From NCBI GenBank assembly GCA_963701825.1, contig CAVPBG010000003.1:1072043-1136042 (forward strand): DNA of 64,000 bases, read 5' to 3'. The notes below the pieces were generated by a model. That model made no database searches, was not told the DNA's origin, and worked only from the letters and a program-made list of their open reading frames with translations. The position numbers and the translations under genes are program-made. Positions 9,469-60,644 of this stretch are shown piece by piece. Source of the DNA: an uncultured Actinomycetes bacterium (GTDB taxonomy: Bacteria; Actinomycetota; Acidimicrobiia; IMCC26256; PALSA-610). Within the stretch, counting starts at the first letter, position 1. Each line of letters opens with the position of its first letter.

Positions 9469-10778
9469 GTGACCGACCCGAACCCCGGAAACGCCAACCC
9501 CGACCCCGGGAACTACGACGACATCAACTTCTTCCGGGACGAGACGCTCGTCGCCGACCCGTATCCGTACTTCACCCACCTGCGCGAACAGTGCCCGGTA
9601 CGCCGGGAACCGCATCACGACGTGTTGATGGTGACGGGGTACGACGAGGCAATTGCCGTGTACCACGACACCGCGACCTTCTCGTCGTGCAATTCGGTGA
9701 CCGGACCGTTCCCGGGATTCTCGGTCGAACTGGTCGGCGACGACGTCACCGACCTCATCGAGCAACACCGCGCCGAGTTGCCGATGAGCGACCAACTGCC
9801 GACCCTCGACCCGCCCGTGCACACCGCGCACCGCGCGCTGCTGATGCGACTCATCACCCCGAAGCGGTTGAAGGAGAACGAGGAGTTCATGTGGCGGCTC
9901 GCCGATCGCACGATCGACGAGTTCGTCGCGCGCGGGAGTTGCGAGTTCATCACCGAGTACGCGAGCCCCTTCGCGATGCTCGTCGTGGCCGACCTGCTCG
10001 GCGTCCCCGAAGCAGACCACAAGACGTTCCGCGCCGCGCTCGGGCCGCGCCCCGGCCGGGCCGTCGGAGGGACCCACGACGACGCGATGTCGGGCAACCC
10101 GCTCGAGTTCCTCTACCAACGGTTCTCGGAGTACGTCGAGGACCGCCGTCGCGAACCGCGGGGCGACGTGCTCACCGGTCTCGCGACCGCGACATTCCCC
10201 GACGGCTCGACCCCCGAGGTCATCGACGTCGTCCGCATCGCCGCGAACCTCTTCGCCGCAGGCCAGGAGACGACCGTGCGCCTGCTCGGCACCGCACTCC
10301 TGCTGTTGGGCGAGAACCCGGACCTGCAGCAGGAACTACGCGACGATCGCGAACGCATCCCGAACTTCGTCGAGGAAGCGCTGCGCTTCGAGAGCCCGAT
10401 CAAGGGCGACTTCCGGTTGTCGCGCGTCGCGGGCACCGTCGGGGGCGTCGACTTTCCCGCGGGCACCACCTTCATGGTGTTGAACGGCGCCGCGAACCGC
10501 GACCCGCGCCGCTTCGAGAACCCCGACGAGTTCATCGTCGACCGCGTGAACGCGCGCCAACACCTCTCGTTCGGCCACGGGATCCACACCTGCCCCGGCG
10601 CGCCGCTCGCCCGCGCCGAAGCGCGCGTCAGCATCGAACGGGTGCTCGACCGCATGGCCGACATCAAGATCTCGGAAGAGAACCACGGCCCCGCGGGGCG
10701 CGGCGCTTTCAGTACGCGCCCACGTACATCTTGCGCGGCCTGACCCGATTGCACCTCGAGTTCACGCCCGCGTCGTAA
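9469..10778 (+). CDS. Cytochrome P450 (CYP150-like); frameshift near 10700
   Basis: AGQETT, EEALR, FGHGIHTCPG; C-terminus RFQYAPTYILRGL in a shifted frame, matching paralog 15669-16955. Confidence 0.88.
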
Positions 10779-15615: not shown

Positions 15616-15668
15616 GCGCACCCCACCCCTCGTACCGGCGTGAGCGGGGCGCCGATATGGCGCCTCGG

Positions 15669-16955
15669 TCACGCCGGTACTCGCGAGGCGGGGGTGAACT
15701 CGATGTGCAGGGAGTGGAGGCCGCGCAGGACCCAGGTGGGTTCGTAGTCGAAGTGGCGATCGCCTTCGGGGCCGTGGTGCTCCTCGGAGAGCCGGATGTC
15801 GGCCATCCGGTCGAGGATGCGCTCCAGGCTGATCCGGGCCTCGGCCCGCGCCAGCGGACCACCCGGGCACGAGTGCACGCCGCGGCCGAAGGCGATGTGC
15901 TCCCGACCGTTCGAACGGTCGAGCCGGAACTCCTCCGGACACTCGAAGCGGCGCGGATCGCGGTTCGCGGCGCCGTTCAACAACACGACCGGCGTCCCCG
16001 GCGCGATGTCGACACCGCCGACCGTCGTGGCCCGCTTGGCCAACCGGAAGTCGGCCTTCACCGGGCTCTCGAGGCGCAGCGCCTCTTCGATGAACGCGGG
16101 GATGAGATCGTGATTGGCGCGCAACTCGTCTTGCAGCGCGGCGTTTTCCGAGAGGTACTTGAGCGCGGTGGCGAGCAGGCGCGCGGTCGTCTCCTGACCG
16201 GCGGCGAACAGGAACGTCGCGGTGCGCACGACCGCAGTGACGTCCGGGGTCGAGCCGTCGGGATACTTGGCGAGCGCGAGGTCGGTCAGCACGTCGCCGC
16301 GTGGTTCGCGCCGGCGATCCTCGATGTAGTCGGCGAAGTAATCGTCGAGCCAGCCCAGCGCGTTCATCGCCATGTCGCTCTGGTCGTCGCCGAGCGCGCC
16401 CGGATTCCCGCTGAGACCGAAGCCGGTCCGGAACCGTTCGTGTTCGTCTTCGGGCACACCGAGCAGGTCGGCGACCACGAGCATCGCGAACGGCTGCGCG
16501 TACGCAGCGATGAACTCGCACGGCCCTTTGGCGATCACCTCGTCGATCTGCCGATCGGCGAGGCGCCACATGAATTCTTCGTTCTCCTGCAGGCGCTTCG
16601 GCGTGATCAACCGCATGAGCAGCGCCCGTTCGCGCGTGTGATCGGGCGGGTCCATGGTGACCATGTGCTCGTTCATCGGAAGCTGATCGCGGTACTCGGC
16701 GATGATGCCGCCGATGTCGTCGCCCTCGAGCGGGACCGGGAAGGCGGCGAACGGACCGATGACGGAGTTGCACGACGAGAAGGTGTCGACGTCGCGGTAC
16801 ACGTCGGTGGCCTCGTCCCAGCCCGAGATCGCGACCACACCGTGGTGCGGCAACGGGGTGACCGGGCACTTGGAACGCAAGAACTCGAAGTACGCGTACG
16901 GATCCTCCAACAACGACACGTCGGAGAAGAAGTCGGCCTGTTCGTAATCAGTCAT
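15669..16955 (-). CDS. Cytochrome P450 (CYP150-like)
   Basis: AGQETT, EEALRLESP, FGRGVHSCPG. Confidence 0.93.
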   Translation of the reverse strand: MTDYEQADFFSDVSLLEDPYAYFEFLRSKCPVTPLPHHGVVAISGWDEATDVYRDVDTFSSCNSVIGPFAAFPVPLEGDDIGGIIAEYRDQLPMNEHMVTMDPPDHTRERALLMRLITPKRLQENEEFMWRLADRQIDEVIAKGPCEFIAAYAQPFAMLVVADLLGVPEDEHERFRTGFGLSGNPGALGDDQSDMAMNALGWLDDYFADYIEDRRREPRGDVLTDLALAKYPDGSTPDVTAVVRTATFLFAAGQETTARLLATALKYLSENAALQDELRANHDLIPAFIEEALRLESPVKADFRLAKRATTVGGVDIAPGTPVVLLNGAANRDPRRFECPEEFRLDRSNGREHIAFGRGVHSCPGGPLARAEARISLERILDRMADIRLSEEHHGPEGDRHFDYEPTWVLRGLHSLHIEFTPASRVPA

Positions 16956-23028: not shown

Positions 23029-23079
23029 CGAACCGTCGTGAGTTGGGCCCGAATAGCGGGCCTAAGTCACGACAGTTCG
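23029..23079. repeat. 51-bp palindromic repeat, copy 2
   Basis: cgaaccgtcgtgagtt-gggcccg-aatag-cgggcct-aagtcacgacagttcg. Confidence 0.92.
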
Positions 23080-40546: not shown

Positions 40547-40597
40547 CGAACTGTCGTGAGTTAGGTGCGATATACGCACCTAAGTCACGACGGTTCG
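40547..40597. repeat. 51-bp palindromic repeat, copy 3
   Basis: cgaactgtcgtgagtt-aggtgcg-atata-cgcacct-aagtcacgacggttcg between convergent genes. Confidence 0.92.
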
Positions 40598-44197: not shown

Positions 44198-45733
44198 ATG
44201 ATGCAGCCCGACGTGAACTGGCTCGGTGTCCTCGAGCACCACGCCGCGAACACGCCCGACAAGCCGATCGCGGTCTACGGCGCCGACGTCGTCACGTATC
44301 AGCAGATGCTCGAGTGGTCGGCCGCACTCGCGGGTGGGCTGCAGGCGCGCGGAGTCGGTGCGGGCGATGTCGTCGGGCTGCTCTCGTACAACAACATCGA
44401 GTTCCTCGCGACGATCTTCGCCGTGAACTATCTCGGCGCGATCGCGATGCCGATCAACTGGCGGCTCGCGGCGCCCGAGCTCCGGTTCATCCTCGAACAT
44501 TCCGAAGCACGCGTGCTGGTGTGCGACAAGGAGCTCGTCGACCTCGCCGACGAAGCGATCCAGGGACTCAGCGGCGGCCGCGAACTGGTTCGAGTGTGCA
44601 TCTCGACCGAGAAGGTGCCGGAATGGGAGCGGTTCGCCGATCTCGGCGCCGGGAACGCTCCTCCGACCCGGGCGCGCGTCGCGGCCGACGACGTACACCG
44701 CCTGATGTACACGTCGGGGACGACCGGGCGGCCGAAGGGCGTCATGCTCTCGCACGCCAACCTGGCGTGGAAGAACTACGCGGACATCACCGAGTTCGGT
44801 TTCACCGCGGCCGACATCGGCCTCGCGTGCGGACCGCTGTACCACGTCGGCGCGCTCGACCTCGTCACGACGACGATGATCGCGGTCGGCGCAACCACGA
44901 TCATCCACCGCGCGTTCGACGCGGCGCGCGTCGTCGGCGAGATCGAAGCGTCGCGCGTCACGTGCGTGTGGACCGCGCCGGCCATGGTGCGCGCGATTCT
45001 CGACGTTCCGGGCGTCGAGGCGCGTGATCTCTCCTCGGTCCGGCTCATCATCGCGGGTGGCGAGAAGATGCCGATCCCGTACATCGAGCGCCTCCGGCGA
45101 ACCTTCCCGTCGGCGTGGTTCGCCGACGCGTACGGGCTCACCGAGACGGTGTCGGGCGACACGTTCCTCGACCGCGCGAGCACGGTAACGAAGCTCGGCA
45201 GCGTCGGCCGGCCGTGTCAGTACCTCGAGCTCGACATCTGGGACGAACACGGCGCGTCGGTCGGCGCGGACGAACGCGGCGAAGTCGTGTTGCGCGGACC
45301 GAAGGTGTTCAAGGGCTACTGGCGCGACCCCGACGCGACGAACACCGCGTTCGCGGGCGGATGGTTCCACACCGGCGACATCGGTGTGCGCGACGCGGAC
45401 GGTTACCTCTACATCGTCGACCGGCTCAAGGACATGATCGTGTCCGGCGGCGAGAACATCGCGAGCTCGGAGATCGAGCGCGTGTTGTACGAGCACGATT
45501 CGGTGGTCGAAGTCGCGGTCGTCGGCCGCCCCGACGAACGGTGGGGCGAAGTTCCCGTCGCCTACGTCGTGTTGCGCGAGGGCGCGTCGCCCACCCCGGA
45601 AGAGCTCATCGAACACTGCCGCGCCCAACTCGCCAAGTTCAAGGTCCCCAAGGCCGTCGCTTTCATCGACGCCCTCCCGAGAAACCCCTCCGGCAAAATC
45701 CTAAAACGCAACCTACGAACCGAACTGTCGTGA
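44198..45733 (+). CDS. Acyl-CoA synthetase (MenE/FadD13-like); stop lies inside repeat copy 4
   Basis: YTSGTTGRPKG, YGLTE, HTGD, SGGEN. Confidence 0.92.
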   Translation: MMQPDVNWLGVLEHHAANTPDKPIAVYGADVVTYQQMLEWSAALAGGLQARGVGAGDVVGLLSYNNIEFLATIFAVNYLGAIAMPINWRLAAPELRFILEHSEARVLVCDKELVDLADEAIQGLSGGRELVRVCISTEKVPEWERFADLGAGNAPPTRARVAADDVHRLMYTSGTTGRPKGVMLSHANLAWKNYADITEFGFTAADIGLACGPLYHVGALDLVTTTMIAVGATTIIHRAFDAARVVGEIEASRVTCVWTAPAMVRAILDVPGVEARDLSSVRLIIAGGEKMPIPYIERLRRTFPSAWFADAYGLTETVSGDTFLDRASTVTKLGSVGRPCQYLELDIWDEHGASVGADERGEVVLRGPKVFKGYWRDPDATNTAFAGGWFHTGDIGVRDADGYLYIVDRLKDMIVSGGENIASSEIERVLYEHDSVVEVAVVGRPDERWGEVPVAYVVLREGASPTPEELIEHCRAQLAKFKVPKAVAFIDALPRNPSGKILKRNLRTELS

Positions 45734-45771
45734 GTTGTGGGCGCATAGCGCCCACAACTCACGACAGTTCG
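45721..45771. repeat. 51-bp palindromic repeat, copy 4 (perfect 24-bp arms)
   Basis: cgaactgtcgtgagttgtgggcgc-ata-gcgcccacaactcacgacagttcg. Confidence 0.95.
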
Positions 45772-45828
45772 AGGGATGGTTCGAGTGGTCGGGGGCTGGT
45801 TGTCTCACCGGGTCGCCAGGATGGCCCG

Positions 45829-46764
45829 ATGCGATCACGCTCCGACGACATCCTCGCCGACATCGCGGCGACCCAGCACGGCGTCTTTTGCATTGCCGAC
45901 GCACAGACGGCGCTACTTTCCACCGAGCAGATCAACCGTCGGGCGTCCGATCGCTGGATCAAGATGCACGAAGGCGTCTATCGGACGGCAGGAGCTCCAG
46001 TCACGTGGCGTGGCAACCTCTACGCCGCGGCCCTGGCCGCGGGTACCGGCGCGGCGATCTCTCATCGCGCGGCCGCGGCGCTGTACGACCTTCCCGGCGG
46101 ACGACCGGGACTCGTCGAACTCACGTGTGTGCACTGGAAGCGCACGGTGCAACGTGGGCTCGTCGTCCACGAGAGCCGGCGCCTCGACGCTCGCGACATA
46201 CAACTCGTCGACGGCATTCCAGTCACGCGACCCGAACGCACGGTCCTCGACATCGCGTCGTACTACCCGAGCGCCAACTATCTCGAGAGCGTCGTGCAAG
46301 CGGCTCGCCGTAAGCGGCTGGTGACGTACGAATCCACTCGAGAGATGTTCGACCGGCACGCCCGCCGCGGCCTCAAGGGCGTGCGCGCGATGCGGGAAAT
46401 GCTGGAACGCTGGGACCCGAACAGTCGCGCGACGGAGAGCGAGATGGAGACGCTGCTGGTTCGCGTCTTGCGCGAGAACGGGCTTCCGAAGCCGGTCGTG
46501 CAACACGACGTCACCGATCTCCGTGGAAGATTCGTCGCGCGCGTCGACGCGGCCTATCCCGACCGGCGCATTCTGATCGAGTACGACAGCAAGCAAGAGC
46601 ACTCGGACGAGTTCCAGATCGCCCGCGATGCCAAGCGCCGCAACCAACTTCAAGCGCTCGGCTACTCCGTTCTGAGTGCCCGCCACGCCGATCTGCGCCT
46701 CGACGGCACCGAACTCTGCACCCAGATCCGCGCGATTCTGCACCGCACCGTCGAACCGTCGTGA
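45829..46764 (+). CDS. AbiEi-like N-terminal domain plus DUF559/Vsr-like endonuclease-fold protein
   Basis: QHGVF...GVY, SHRAAAALY, GIPVTRPERTVLD, ESEME, RVDAAYP...IEYDS...H...RD..RRNQL...GY. Confidence 0.85.
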   Translation: MRSRSDDILADIAATQHGVFCIADAQTALLSTEQINRRASDRWIKMHEGVYRTAGAPVTWRGNLYAAALAAGTGAAISHRAAAALYDLPGGRPGLVELTCVHWKRTVQRGLVVHESRRLDARDIQLVDGIPVTRPERTVLDIASYYPSANYLESVVQAARRKRLVTYESTREMFDRHARRGLKGVRAMREMLERWDPNSRATESEMETLLVRVLRENGLPKPVVQHDVTDLRGRFVARVDAAYPDRRILIEYDSKQEHSDEFQIARDAKRRNQLQALGYSVLSARHADLRLDGTELCTQIRAILHRTVEPS

Positions 46765-46802
46765 GTTGTGGGCGCATAGCGCCGACAACTCACGACGGTT
46801 CG
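46752..46802. repeat. 51-bp palindromic repeat, copy 5
   Basis: cgaaccgtcgtgagtt-gtgggcg-catag-cgccgac-aactcacgacggttcg; holds the stops of both flanking genes. Confidence 0.95.
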
Positions 46803-47695
46803 ATTCTCTCTAGGTGGTGCATGAACTCCGCGGACCAGGATTTGAGGTCGGCGGGGACGGAGTAACTGGTTTCATCGTTGATCGTCGTCCAGTGCGCGGC
46901 GACGTCTTCGATCGACGGGTCGGGCGCGGTGTGGACGTAGCCCTCGGTCGACGCGATGAACACGCGCGCGAAACGTCCGAAGCCGGCGGCATAGATCTCG
47001 CCGCTGACGGGGCAGTCTTCGTGCGCGAGGAACGCGACCATCGGCGCGACGAGCTCCGGGGCCATCTCGGGCGCGCCCTCCCCCGCGCCGGCCATGCGCG
47101 TGAACGCACCCGGCATGACGAGGTTGATCTTGATCCCGTGCTGGGCGCCGGCCGTGTTGAGGCTGCGCGTCATCCCGATGACCGCGCCCTTCGCCGTCGC
47201 GTACGAGAGGTTTTCCGGCAGCCCGAACACGCCCGCGGACGTGGTCATCACGATACGGCCGTAACCCTGTTCGACCATGTGCGGCCACGCGGCGCGGGTG
47301 GTGTTGAACGAGCCGCCGACGTGCACGGCCAGGTGGCGAGCGAGATTGTCGGCGTCGGCCTTGGGGAAGGCGGCCCAGCGGATGATGCCCGCGTTGTTGA
47401 TCAGGATGTCGATGCGTCCGAACTGCTCGACCGCGGCGCCCACGAGGGCTTCGCCCCCCGCCGCGGTCGAGACGTCGTTCGTGTCGGCGACCGCCACGCC
47501 CCCGGCCGCGACGATCTCCGCGACGACCAGCGCGGCCGGTTCGGCGTCCGCGCCGACACCGTCGATCGAACCGCCGAGGTCGTTGACCACGACGTGCGCG
47601 CCCCGTTCCGCGAGCAGCCGCGCGTAGGCGCGCCCGATGCCGCGTCCCGCGCCCGTGACCACCGCGACGCGCCCCTCGAAGCTGTGTTCGTTCAC
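46790..47695 (-). CDS. SDR oxidoreductase (MFE-2/17-beta-HSD4-like)
   Basis: TGAGRGIG, VVVNDLGG, NNAGI, YATAK. Confidence 0.9.
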   Translation of the reverse strand: MNEHSFEGRVAVVTGAGRGIGRAYARLLAERGAHVVVNDLGGSIDGVGADAEPAALVVAEIVAAGGVAVADTNDVSTAAGGEALVGAAVEQFGRIDILINNAGIIRWAAFPKADADNLARHLAVHVGGSFNTTRAAWPHMVEQGYGRIVMTTSAGVFGLPENLSYATAKGAVIGMTRSLNTAGAQHGIKINLVMPGAFTRMAGAGEGAPEMAPELVAPMVAFLAHEDCPVSGEIYAAGFGRFARVFIASTEGYVHTAPDPSIEDVAAHWTTINDETSYSVPADLKSWSAEFMHHLERIEPS

Positions 47696-47714
47696 CACAA
47701 TCCGCTCACCGGGG

Positions 47715-47732
47715 TTGTACCGACCAGTCATT
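47715..47732. promoter_or_regulatory. TTGTAC-N6 candidate operator upstream of tetR, adjacent to a TATACT -10-like hexamer
   Basis: ttgtac-cgacca-gtcatt followed by tatact at 47732-47737. Confidence 0.55.
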
Positions 47733-47780
47733 ATACTTTTGCCGTTGTCCTCCGCACCGTCCGACGCCCCGTCCGAGCCC

Positions 47781-48392
47781 ATGCCGCGCACGGCGGCGAG
47801 TGACGATCCGCGCCGCAGCGCGAACTGGAACGCCCGCCGCGACGTGATCATCGACACGTCGGCGCGCGTCTTCGCGCGCAACGGCTACCACGCGACGGGA
47901 ATCGCCGAGCTCTGCGAAGTCAACGGCTTCGGCAAGGGCGCGTTCTACTACTACATCGGTTCGAAGGAAGAGCTGCTCGCCGCGATCCACGATCGCGTGA
48001 TGGACGAGGTGATGCTCGGCGCGGATCGCACTGCGGAGGCCGACGGTTCGCCCGCGGCGCAGCTCGAGAAGTTGGGCGCGGAACTGCTCGACGTCATCCA
48101 CCGCTATCCCGATCACGTGTGGGTGTTTCTGCACGAGTTCCCCGCGCTCACCGCGGAACGGGCCGAGCAATTCCGCCGCCGGCGCCAGATCTACGAGCGC
48201 CGGGTCGCGGCGATCGTGCAAGCCGGGATCGACGCGGGCGAGTTTCGCGATGTCGACCCGAAGCTCACCGCGCTCGCGTGGCTCGGCATGCACAACTACA
48301 CCTACCTCTGGCTCAAGGCCGGCGGCCGCGTGTCGGCGCGCGACGTGGCCCAACCCTTCGCCGACATCTTCATCCGCGGTATCGCGAAGTAA
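47781..48392 (+). CDS. TetR-family regulator (KstR2-like C-terminus)
   Basis: HTH GIAELCEVNGFGKGAFYYYIGSKEE; GMHNYTYLW. Confidence 0.92.
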   Translation: MPRTAASDDPRRSANWNARRDVIIDTSARVFARNGYHATGIAELCEVNGFGKGAFYYYIGSKEELLAAIHDRVMDEVMLGADRTAEADGSPAAQLEKLGAELLDVIHRYPDHVWVFLHEFPALTAERAEQFRRRRQIYERRVAAIVQAGIDAGEFRDVDPKLTALAWLGMHNYTYLWLKAGGRVSARDVAQPFADIFIRGIAK

Positions 48393-54909: not shown

Positions 54910-54988
54910 AGCCCGAACCGGCGGGCGCGTGGCATCGTATGGATGCCGCGGTCACACCCGTTCGATCGGGTTGGCGCGAGCGGCCGGA

Positions 54989-58526: not shown

Positions 58527-59822
58527 ATGACAACGACCGCGGGATCCGCACCCTCGAATCCGTCGGTGCCACCGATCGGGGCGCGCCGCGTCGCCGACCT
58601 CGTCGACTGCGACCTCACCTCGGGCGCGTCGTTCGTCGCCGGCGTCCCCCACGAAGCTTTCGACATTCTCCGCGCGCAGGGCGGGATCGCGTGGCACGAC
58701 GAGCCGCCGGTCGGTGGGTTGATGAGTGGCGCATCGTTCATCCAGTTCGTCGACAGCCCCGGGTTCTGGACCGTCACCGCCTACGACCTCGTCGTCGAAG
58801 TCGATCGCGACCAGGAGCGCTTCTCGTCGGAGTTGGGCGGCACGTTCATGCCGTCGCTCACCGAAGACAGCCTGGCCATGTTCCGCCAGATGATGCTGAA
58901 CATGGACCACCCACGGCACACTCGGCTGCGACGCATCCTGCAGCCGATCTTCACGCCCCGGTCGATCGAACGGCTCCGCACGTCGATCGAGACCAACGCC
59001 ACCGACATTCTCGAAGGCGTACACGGCGAGTTCGATCTCGTCACGACCGTCTCCGCGGAGATGCCGCTGCGCGTCCTCGCCGACCTGCTCGGCATGCCCC
59101 GGGAAGACCGCGGGCTCATGTTCGAATGGAGCAATGCGCTGCTCGGCGCCGAGAACCCGAGCGAAGCCCAGCACGCCGAGGACGCGACGACGGCACTCGC
59201 GGGAATGATGATGTACGGCCAGGCGATGGCCGACGACCGGCGCGCGAATCCGCGCGACGACATCGTGAGTCGCATCGTCACCGCCGAGGTCGACGGCGAA
59301 CGGATCACCGACGAAGAGTTCCAGATGTTCTGGCTACTGCTCGTGGTGGCCGGGAACGAGACGACGCGCAACGCGGTATCGGGCTCGGTGCTCGCGTTGC
59401 ACCAACAGGAGCTCTGGCCGTGGCTCGCAGCCCATCCCGAGCATCTCGACGCGGCCGTCGAAGAGCTCCTCCGCTACGTCTCTCCCGTGCACCAGTTCCG
59501 CCGCACCGCAACCTCCGACGTCGTGCTCGGCGACCAGCACGTGCGCGCGGGCGACAAGGTGGTGATCTGGTTCTCGGCCGCGAATCACGACCCGGCAGTG
59601 TTCGCCGATCCCCATCACCTCGACCTGCTCCGCGACCCGAATCCCCACGTGGCGTTCGGGATCGGGCCGCACTTCTGCCTCGGCGCCCACCTGGCCCGGC
59701 TGGAGGCGGCGGAGATGCTGCGCTTCCTCTTGCGTCACGCGCCCGACATGTCGGTCGGCGAGCCGACGCGCGTCGCCTCGAACTTCATCAACGGCATCGC
59801 CCACCTCCCCGCAAGCGTCTAA
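58527..59822 (+). CDS. Cytochrome P450 (CYP124/125/142-like)
   Basis: AGNETTRN, EELLR, FGIGPHFCLG. Confidence 0.93.
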   Translation: MTTTAGSAPSNPSVPPIGARRVADLVDCDLTSGASFVAGVPHEAFDILRAQGGIAWHDEPPVGGLMSGASFIQFVDSPGFWTVTAYDLVVEVDRDQERFSSELGGTFMPSLTEDSLAMFRQMMLNMDHPRHTRLRRILQPIFTPRSIERLRTSIETNATDILEGVHGEFDLVTTVSAEMPLRVLADLLGMPREDRGLMFEWSNALLGAENPSEAQHAEDATTALAGMMMYGQAMADDRRANPRDDIVSRIVTAEVDGERITDEEFQMFWLLLVVAGNETTRNAVSGSVLALHQQELWPWLAAHPEHLDAAVEELLRYVSPVHQFRRTATSDVVLGDQHVRAGDKVVIWFSAANHDPAVFADPHHLDLLRDPNPHVAFGIGPHFCLGAHLARLEAAEMLRFLLRHAPDMSVGEPTRVASNFINGIAHLPASV

Positions 59823-59826
59823 ACCT

Positions 59827-59877
59827 CGAACCGTCGTGAGTTGGGCCCGAATAGCGGGCCGAAGTCACGACAGTACG
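59827..59877. repeat. 51-bp palindromic repeat, copy 6
   Basis: cgaaccgtcgtgagtt-gggcccg-aatag-cgggccg-aagtcacgacagtacg between convergent genes. Confidence 0.92.
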
Positions 59878-59882
59878 CGTCT

Positions 59883-60644
59883 TTAGTAGTGGTCGAGGAG
59901 GTCGACGACGGTTGCCGCGTCCTGGCCGAGCATGACGCGACCGACTACCTGCATGTGCGAGCGCCAGTGCTCTTCTGCTGCGACGGCGTCGCCCGCGTCG
60001 AGGAGCTCGAGCAGACGTTCCTGCGACCGGATCCCGCGGCGGCGCACCGCAAGCGAACCGACGACGTCGTCGGCCCGGCTCACTGCGGTCACCGCGCGGG
60101 CCACGATGCCGTTCAACATCTCCGCGACGATGCCGAGCGTCTGATTTCCCGCCAGCAGCACGAGCCGTTCGTGGAACGTGGCGTTCGCCGCACCGAACCG
60201 TTCCGGATCCTCGATCGCGTCCTCTTCGTCGTGGATCAGGACGCGCAGCTCCTTGATCGCGGCTTTGCGACCGCGCATGGTTGCGATGGTGCGCGCCGCG
60301 ATCGGCTCGAGCAGGCTGCGCGCCTCGGAGACGTCGGCGAGCGAGACGTTCCGTGCTTGCAACACCAGCGCCGCGGTACGCGCGGTCATGCGGCCGCTGG
60401 GCGCGTGCACGACGACGCCGCCGCGCACGCCCCGCACGACGGTGACGAGCCCTTCGGCTTCGAGGATGCGCAGCGCCTCGCGCAGCGACGGGCGCGACAC
60501 GCCGAAGCGTTCGACCAGATCCGGTTCGTGCCCGAGCGAGTCGCCTTCCGACAGTTCGCCCGCGACGATGAGCGCGCGCAGTTCGTCGGCGATCAGCTGG
60601 GGTTTCTCCCGTGGTCGCGTCTTGTTGCCCTTGGCGACAGCCAC
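59883..60644 (-). CDS. GntR/FadR-family regulator
   Basis: EPDLVERFGVSRPSLREALRILE, FCD-type C-terminus. Confidence 0.92.
   Translation of the reverse strand: MAVAKGNKTRPREKPQLIADELRALIVAGELSEGDSLGHEPDLVERFGVSRPSLREALRILEAEGLVTVVRGVRGGVVVHAPSGRMTARTAALVLQARNVSLADVSEARSLLEPIAARTIATMRGRKAAIKELRVLIHDEEDAIEDPERFGAANATFHERLVLLAGNQTLGIVAEMLNGIVARAVTAVSRADDVVGSLAVRRRGIRSQERLLELLDAGDAVAAEEHWRSHMQVVGRVMLGQDAATVVDLLDHY

Follow-up and report, generated by a model that had tools for sequence, protein, structure and literature searches.

Two copies of a dispersed 51-bp palindrome enclose a gene for a 311-aa protein in a 64,000-nt stretch (the window) of contig C3 (CAVPBG010000003.1) from the genome of an uncultured actinomycete (GCA_963701825.1, hereafter G000; 4.44 Mb, 68.5% G+C, five contigs). 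Comparisons within this genome and with 41 related genomes point to a partnership of palindrome and nuclease gene that has the layout of repetitive extragenic palindromes (REPs) and their REP-associated tyrosine transposases (RAYTs), built on an unrelated enzyme and apparently undescribed. The gene runs from 45829 to 46764 on the plus strand, and both the 5′ palindrome copy (45721-45771) and the 3′ copy (46752-46802) are of the type we call A, with the same inner stem (GTGGGCGC) and the same loop (CATAG), the 3′ copy carrying one stem mismatch. In single-strand folding each copy gives a 24-bp hairpin, with energies of -33.4 and -32.1 kcal/mol (z = -13.4 and -11.4).

Three stop codons fall inside the palindrome arms. 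The left arm of the 5′ copy carries the TGA (45731-45733) of an acyl-CoA ligase gene (44198-45733, plus strand), the left arm of the 3′ copy contains the TGA of the 311-aa gene (46762-46764), whose last codons also lie in that copy, and its right arm holds the stop (46790-46792, minus strand) of a gene of the short-chain dehydrogenase/reductase (SDR) family (46790-47881, minus strand). The ligase and SDR genes, each with its 3′ end in a palindrome, are neighbours outside the system. A 57-nt spacer (45772-45828, plus strand), similar in length across the family, separates the 5′ copy from the start codon, and no sigma-70-like promoter was found in it. The G+C content at third codon positions (GC3) is 0.79 in the 311-aa gene vs 0.89-0.90 in its two neighbours. 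An initial annotation of the window, made from the letters alone, had described the gene between two palindromes with shared inner stem and loop, and this description is accurate; its observation that deletion of 45772-46802 would leave a ligase-palindrome-SDR arrangement with one codon changed also holds, the change being CCG to CTG as we read it. The direct orientation that it gave for the two copies is correct for this locus but is not conserved, since the copies at the ortholog in the sister genome (G014) are mutually inverted.

The bracket at 45829-46764 is by itself not beyond chance, because two copies also enclose three other gene-sized stretches of the genome (with a 300-aa protein, a LysR and SnoaL pair and an enoyl-CoA hydratase fusion) and because the local copy density is high. 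In a reading without any functional link, palindromes occupy many gene ends of a repeat-rich stretch and the gene happens to fall between two of them. In favour of this reading, there are seven to eight copies in 64 kb, three of the four gene-sized brackets in the genome surround unrelated genes, and by our own estimate about 0.8 bracketed genes are expected per such window at the local density.

Architecture and predicted fold of the protein

By its modelled structure, the 311-aa protein is an AbiEi-like winged-helix module (approximately residues 1-195) fused to a nuclease domain of the Vsr/DUF559/MTES_1575 type (approximately residues 200-305). Its Pfam matches are marginal (AbiEi_1, 21.9 bits with a cut-off of 22.2; DUF559, 21.2 bits with a cut-off of 20.6; REase_MTES_1575, 22.4 bits), and the PADLOC model for AbiEi matches residues 4-181 (E 7e-31). 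In Foldseek searches with an AlphaFold model built from a 30-sequence alignment (predicted local distance difference test 93, predicted template modelling score 0.87), the N-terminal two thirds matched the AbiEi antitoxin 6y8q (E 9e-5) and Rv2827c (1zel), and the C-terminal 100 aa matched the homing endonuclease I-Bth0305I (3r3p; template modelling score 0.68 on the target), Vsr (1cw0/1vsr) and NGO0050 (3hrl). A FASTKD4 module and Toxoplasma mitoribosomal proteins were matched weakly. The predicted fold agrees with the combination of an AbiEi-like part and a Vsr/PD-(D/E)XK fold proposed in the initial annotation.

Across the 30 aligned members, 27 match MTES_1575, 19 match DUF559 and 19 match AbiEi_4. 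Of the candidate catalytic positions, E251 does not vary, and D240, H258 and D267, like R270, reach at least 90% conservation, a pattern compatible with an active nuclease. The family is very large: a library clustered at 50% identity contains 15,367 representatives that match at E <= 1e-30, and NCBI names the homologs "AbiEi family antitoxin domain-containing protein". When a cultivable named example was sought, the best plasmid match, on pR1CP1 of Rhodococcus opacus, turned out to be a true AbiEi beside AbiEii, from a different branch.

The initial annotation had reported neither an HUH transposase nor an AbiEii partner, in agreement with our searches: no AbiEii gene is adjacent and the sole match in the genome is on another contig (C2:640851), while Y1_Tnp (PF01797), the RAYT domain, has no match in G000 (73% complete), G014, G008 or G020.

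Repeats at the borders of homologous genes

To survey the borders of homologous genes, we assembled 52 loci from the 41 related genomes, all of the same order, combining 12 loci returned by the search with the next 40 full-length matches in E-value order. The set leaves aside two partial matches (G023:C4:899038-899586 and G037:C11:61461-61865) and stops short of the lower-scoring matches, including most of those from the genus; one unpublished genome (G015) is counted in the 41-genome tallies. For each locus, 220 nt around the start were compared with 200 nt around the stop, and a score above 19.5 was taken as positive; one locus (L051) lies too near a contig end, so that 51 were tested.

Similarity between the 5′ and 3′ flanks exceeded this threshold in 35 of the 51 loci, the highest control comparison reaching 19.0, and in 25 of 3315 G000 genes (0.75%) taken as background from a crude GC3-based open reading frame (ORF) call that covers about 73% of the genome and does not contain the 311-aa gene. 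The expectation in the initial annotation that homologs would be flanked by repeats more often than random genes is borne out by these numbers. Strict hairpins (stem of at least 13 bp, at most 2 mismatches) occur at both borders of 13 of the 52 loci, at one border of 9 and at none of 30, and their density is 19-fold higher at the gene borders than elsewhere (35 in 17.7 kb vs 30 in the other 286 kb). The spacer upstream of the gene is of similar length throughout the family (median of 55 nt between the 5′ repeat and the start codon), and on the other side the median start of the 3′ repeat is 2 nt before the stop codon ends.

A wider sample of 150 further genomes from the phylum gave 11 positives among 28 loci, a further locus (L105) being too near a contig end. 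Unpublished genomes contribute to the phylum match tally (G163, G191, G125, G044, G061 and G091) and to the phylum flank test (loci L090, L092, L094, L100 and L107); without them, 9 of 23 loci are positive.

The cognate bracket thus recurs across genomes and paralogues. A reading without functional link does not anticipate a bracket in 35 of 51 homologous loci vs 0.75% of ordinary genes, formed by different repeats each time, nor its recurrence at a second paralogue of G000 itself, and we consider it very improbable.

Some other genes of G000 also have long repeats shared between their 5′ and 3′ flanks, with scores up to 98.5 (C4:663733-664206, C2:1252609-1257964 and C3:487362-491891); these may be tandem arrays or further repeat families.

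A separate repeat family for each gene

Each genome, and each paralogue, has flanking repeats of its own, at least four different pairs being present in a single genome (G026). Six flanking repeats were tested, and all six proved to be dispersed families in their own genome. Matches to the arms of three of them number 39 (G034), 28 (G032) and 10 (G030) in the genome of origin and 0 in each of four other genomes; those of the other three number 54 (G041), 30 (G043) and 10 (G042) in their own genomes. In G000, a second full-length paralogue (C2:1475951-1476835; 27% identical) has on both flanks a different, 53-nt compound repeat beginning CCCTGCCATCAGATGGCAG, for which BLAST gives more than 25 matching places, spread over four contigs (C2-C5). 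The other matches to the protein in G000 are partial, covering residues 6-192 (C5), 57-144 (C2) and 73-220 (C4), and none of the three weaker paralogue matches found by tblastn lies near a copy of the 51-bp palindrome.

Among the closest relatives of the 311-aa protein, the outer arm of the flanking repeat drifts stepwise with protein identity: it reads CGAACYGKCGTGAG at 100 and 86% identity, CGAACCGGCGTGAS at 68%, CGAACCTGCGTGAS at 64%, CAAACCGGCGTCAG at 56% and CGTTCTTGCGTGAG at 54%. At 30-40% protein identity the repeats are no longer alignable. The cognate gene is present as one copy each in G014, G041, G042 and G043. In G041 it appears as two overlapping frames (C10:417866-418784, locus L081), covering residues 5-149 and 146-310, as a result of either a frameshift or an assembly error.

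The palindrome family in the genome

A profile search with nhmmer found 76 copies of the palindrome in the 4.44-Mb genome. The window contains seven copies found by repeat search and an eighth, degenerate copy at about 54913-54965, and is roughly 6-fold enriched, because the genome average is about 1.1 copies per 64 kb. The arm pattern CGAACYGKCGTGAS has 117 matches in the genome, and the reversed control pattern has none.

The copies are concentrated at gene ends: 49 of the 76 lie between convergent gene ends and 25 more adjoin one gene end, so that at least one gene end is found beside 74. The TGA at arm offset +11 serves as a stop codon in 19 cases. Many copies are extended by TAA and a C-rich run on the left and by a G-rich run and TTA on the right (for example at 59800-59900 of the window), and TAA stops look common just outside the arms because of these extensions.

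The outer arms (CGAACYGKCGTGAG) are nearly constant, and about five types of inner stem can be told apart, with substitutions on one side of the stem compensated on the other. A position that does not co-vary at all is located 3 nt ahead of the CGTGA core and occupied by Y in the left arm and R in the right: it forms a Watson-Crick pair in only 49% of the 76 copies, whereas the neighbouring G/T position co-varies strictly (87%). This lack of pairing suggests that the arms are recognized there by their sequence and not as a base pair. The arms begin with (T)CGAAC, and CGTC was seen only as one variant within the stem.

The positions of the copies raise an alternative in which the protein is a hairpin-binding regulator or an RNA-processing factor, binding the palindromes as operators or as hairpins at mRNA 3′ ends and thereby controlling its own gene and the genes that end there, with the repeats spread by unrelated means. 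AbiEi proteins are DNA-binding autoregulators, and the gene starts shortly after the 5′ copy. The location of 49 of the copies between convergent ends and of 25 beside a single one, the high stability of the hairpins and the weak structural matches to FASTKD4 and Toxoplasma mitoribosomal proteins would all fit such a role, and the portion of PMC11879112 concerned with Vsr-like RAP/FASTK proteins describes them as acting on organellar RNA. Against this alternative stand the conservation of the predicted catalytic residues across the family, the lack of U-tract terminators at the sites of the locus, and the private repeat families of individual paralogues, missing from related genomes, which a regulon leaves unexplained.

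Intrinsic (rho-independent) termination was examined as a function of the flanking copies and rejected: no terminator-like site was found in 45600-46950, and the flanks are C-rich or G-rich, not T-rich. The palindromes are not canonical terminators because they lack a T-tract. No Rfam family reached its gathering score anywhere in the window. Elsewhere in the window, the segments 9514-10693 and 15767-16946 form long inverted repeats with 71-76% complementarity, and are probably paralogous genes in opposite orientation.

Turnover between sister genomes

Along 460 kb of synteny between G000 and G014, 13 of 15 assessable palindrome sites are common to both genomes, and yet the palindromes are 81.7% identical vs 92.4% for their flanks. 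The differences consist of whole inner stems swapped through coordinated double changes, and many sites of type A or D in G000 are of type B in G014. Stem pairs co-vary. The commonest type in each genome is the type that flanks the gene, namely A in G000 (28 of 76 copies) and B in the G014 stretch (13 of 18 copies), and within each genome both gene-flanking copies share one type. The family evolves in concert and in place, with copies overwritten from other copies while the sites stay.

The solo palindromes of the window illustrate this turnover. The copies at 2866-2917 (type A) and 23029-23079 (type D, GGGCCCG) are of type B at the orthologous sites of G014, the copy at 15630-15680 (type C) is near-identical at its orthologous site, and the degenerate copy at 54913-54965 (type E, GTGGCATC), which the profile search did not catch, is better preserved in G014. 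The copy at 40547-40597 (type B) has an orthologous site without a palindrome, and the copy at 59827-59877 (type D) lies in a part of the window (about 56.5-60.7 kb) that has no counterpart in the aligned region of G014.

Concerted replacement in place is likewise unexplained by a regulator or RNA-processing factor, and as an account of the palindromes and the gene that alternative appears improbable to us. A regulatory or RNA-level role is possible alongside either a repeat-maintaining or a self-mobilizing function of the nuclease.

Indels of kilobase size between the two genomes are marked by palindromes too. Where G000 has a single copy (C3:1203051-1203101), G014 has two palindromes of different types with an SDR gene of about 277 aa between them (C1, approximately 3351886-3352771), and about 960 nt near C3:1048616-1049570 of G000, with a palindrome adjacent, are missing from G014.

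History of the ligase-SDR junction

Among the 41 related genomes, only G014 has an ortholog of the 311-aa gene, with 86% identity, at the same site and with a palindrome on each side. Arm-pattern matches follow the same distribution, with 117 in G000, 109 in G014, 10 in G008, 9 in G020 and 0 to 4 in the remaining 37 genomes. As the initial annotation would have it, the repeat is rare where the gene is missing: in this sample the ortholog and more than 100 arm matches occur together in G000 and G014, and the other 39 of 41 genomes have 0-10 matches.

The junction between ligase and SDR genes is variable in the relatives. It is empty and free of palindromes in G024 and G009, and holds 2.8-5 kb of other genes in G016, G020, G002 and G006; these inserts contain several long ORFs, putatively metabolic, and a second SDR-like match in G020, G002 and G006. 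Since the junction is empty or otherwise filled in relatives, the gene, and apparently the palindrome family too, arrived in the common ancestor of G000 and G014. The nearest relatives of the protein are found in other lineages (42-68% identity), and those of genus mates are at most 37% identical.

Arm-like stretches (GAACCG, CGAAC, CTCGAAC) occur at all three empty sites inspected (L025:1370-1400, L026:1320-1350 and the G014 site orthologous to 40547-40597), which hints at microhomology or target preference, or at decayed remnants of lost copies; three cases are too few to tell these apart. At the sole clean presence/absence site, the copy at 40547-40597 compared with G014, the alignment is ambiguous and gives no clear target duplication. 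Four DNA sequencing runs yielded only short contigs of low depth and no junction spanning the gene, which speaks neither for nor against population variants.

In the principal rival explanation, the palindrome-gene-palindrome unit is itself a mobile, selfish cassette that might home into existing palindromes by break repair, or be excised and integrated by recombination between copies, and whose nuclease would serve its own gene only. Solo palindromes would then be landing sites, or scars of gene loss by recombination between the flanks, as with solo long terminal repeats. In favour of such a cassette, the predicted catalytic domain most resembles that of the homing endonuclease I-Bth0305I; the gene entered a junction that has no insert in G024 and G009; its closest relatives come from other lineages (42-68% identity, vs at most 37% in genus mates) and its GC3 is below that of its neighbours; the flanking copies are of one type within each genome; and kilobase indels adjoin palindromes in the sister genomes (the SDR gene in G014, about 960 nt in G000). 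Efficient homing, however, should give several copies of the gene, and there is one cognate gene for 76 palindromes in G000 and one copy each in G014, G041, G042 and G043. The palindrome family is nearly absent from genus mates that lack the gene, so that pre-existing landing sites are not evident, the gene occupies the same site in both sister genomes, and the idea of solo scars requires 76 insertions and losses by an element with no known entry to naive sites. Efficient homing fits poorly with the single gene copy and with genus mates that lack the family, and we regard a purely selfish cassette as unlikely, though less so than a regulator.

A candidate nuclease-palindrome system

We favor the explanation, with a probability of roughly 0.6, that the 51-bp palindromes are a REP-like family with a cognate hydrolytic nuclease gene, analogous to REP/RAYT systems, and that the locus described here is the "home" of the pair. 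The winged-helix module would recognize the conserved outer arms (CGAACYGKCGTGAG), and the Vsr-like nuclease would nick or cut the palindrome, either as duplex or as extruded hairpin. Host repair could then copy from another palindrome copy, so that the family would be homogenized in place and, occasionally, new copies might be seeded or the gene itself carried into a palindrome. Such a role corresponds to the one ascribed to RAYTs at REPs, but the chemistry must differ from that of RAYTs, because a hydrolytic nuclease cannot form a covalent DNA intermediate. This explanation draws on four observations, namely the architecture of the protein, the recurrent cognate bracket, the joint occurrence of gene and repeat, and the replacement of palindromes in concert at their sites; gene conversion is the engine that we infer from them. 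Three of the four comparative predictions made with the initial annotation are supported; binding, nicking and mobilization by the protein would be the corresponding activities.

Several observations weigh against this explanation. Unrelated genes are bracketed by two copies as well, so that the bracket in G000 on its own proves nothing. The relative orientation of the flanking copies varies across the family (14 direct, 13 inverted, 8 ambiguous), and a flanking repeat is missing at 15 of the 51 loci from the order and at 17 of the 28 from the phylum sample. Members of family f33, which have the top profile scores and up to 10 copies per genome (G183, G155, G083, G053, G098 and G141), mostly lack flanking repeats, with only one of nine tested loci positive (L087); they may be a subfamily with a different lifestyle. 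The expected co-variation of protein clades with repeat types is found in part: private repeats and the stepwise drift of the arm in the closest relatives agree with it, but it is visible only among four or five of these, and over 36 loci protein identity and palindrome similarity are uncorrelated (Mantel r = -0.05, a value reached in 1685 of 2000 permutations), in a test where the protein of L081 was translated with a partial codon and its identities are understated.

Because G000 and G014 are sister genomes, their co-occurrence of gene and repeat represents one evolutionary event and not 41 observations, and G008 and G020 hold arm matches (10 and 9) without an ortholog. The ligase-palindrome-SDR allele anticipated by the initial annotation was not found among the relatives examined, whose junctions are either palindrome-free (G024, G009) or occupied by other inserts. 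With G000 73% complete, a RAYT or another mobilizer could sit in the missing part. DNA binding, cutting and gene conversion are all steps that we infer, and a hydrolytic nuclease has no obvious way to put a palindrome at a naive site.

Comparison with known systems

The resemblance of the proposed nuclease-palindrome pair to the REP/RAYT systems of Proteobacteria (REPtrons, and REPINs with TnpA-REP) lies in tens of short palindromes at gene ends, a single-copy gene per family flanked by cognate repeats, the possibility of several gene-repeat pairs in one genome, and sites that are mostly inherited vertically while their sequences turn over. The defining feature of those systems, an HUH/Y1 transposase, is replaced here by a predicted winged-helix and Vsr-like hydrolytic nuclease; moreover, the palindromes are longer (51 bp, with stems of about 24 bp), lack the GTAG or CGTC tag of REPs (as defined in PMC3733652), have no fixed flank orientation and belong to the phylum Actinomycetota.

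The EDxHD homing endonucleases, exemplified by I-Bth0305I, and Vsr share with the protein the catalytic fold (by Foldseek) and a DNA-binding module placed N-terminal to the nuclease, and its conserved acidic and histidine residues may correspond to theirs; the Vsr homology of I-Bth0305I and the EDxHD family are described in a section of PMC3239194. In contrast to these enzymes, the DNA-binding part here is AbiEi-like instead of NUMOD, and the gene, outside any intron, intein or phage, sits in intergenic DNA between two intact dispersed chromosomal repeats, interrupting no unique target. The AbiE type IV toxin-antitoxin systems are similar in that the N-terminal 180-200 residues match AbiEi models and structures, and differ in that no AbiEii is adjacent here and a nuclease domain follows the AbiEi-like module.

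Integron cassettes with attC sites are likewise genes bracketed by imperfect palindromes, and here too unrelated genes are sometimes bracketed and their presence differs between sister genomes. These bracketed genes prompted us to consider an integron, a reading that we rejected on the layout of the copies, which form no cassette arrays and are placed between convergent resident genes.

A further parallel is offered by CGTC-tagged REPs, which are also dispersed palindrome families flanking no RAYT gene. They differ in their 8-9-bp stems, their CGTC tag and their occurrence mainly in Alphaproteobacteria, and in the account by Di Nocera et al. (2013, PMC3733652) they have no known associated gene and no dedicated transposase, so that palindrome families without an enzyme are a recognized open problem. 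Full-text searches, with subscription journals and supplementary files outside their scope, returned no paper that links DUF559 or AbiEi-type nucleases to dispersed palindromes.

Implications

The spread and persistence of short palindromic repeats in bacteria are understood only where a RAYT is present. With somewhat less than even confidence, we propose that proteins of about 310 aa combining a winged helix with a Vsr-like nuclease are the cognate partners of dispersed palindromes across Actinomycetota, forming a second, RAYT-independent class of REPs in which cutting and break repair spread, homogenize and symmetrize the repeats. If true, such a class would explain compensatory stem changes and in-place concerted replacement without covalent transposase chemistry, and the same logic might account for transposase-less REP families elsewhere, including the CGTC-type REPs, for which the present finding is a candidate answer.

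For a very large uncharacterized family, whose members usually go under the label of orphan "AbiEi antitoxin domain" or "DUF559" proteins, the association provides a concrete and testable candidate role, and each member comes with a candidate DNA target written at both sides of its gene. If confirmed, the system would represent a new mechanism of repeat propagation that employs a nuclease and repair instead of a transposase, would be a natural source of nucleases specific for 50-bp sites, and would explain the concerted evolution of palindromes and the kilobase indels at gene ends in these genomes.

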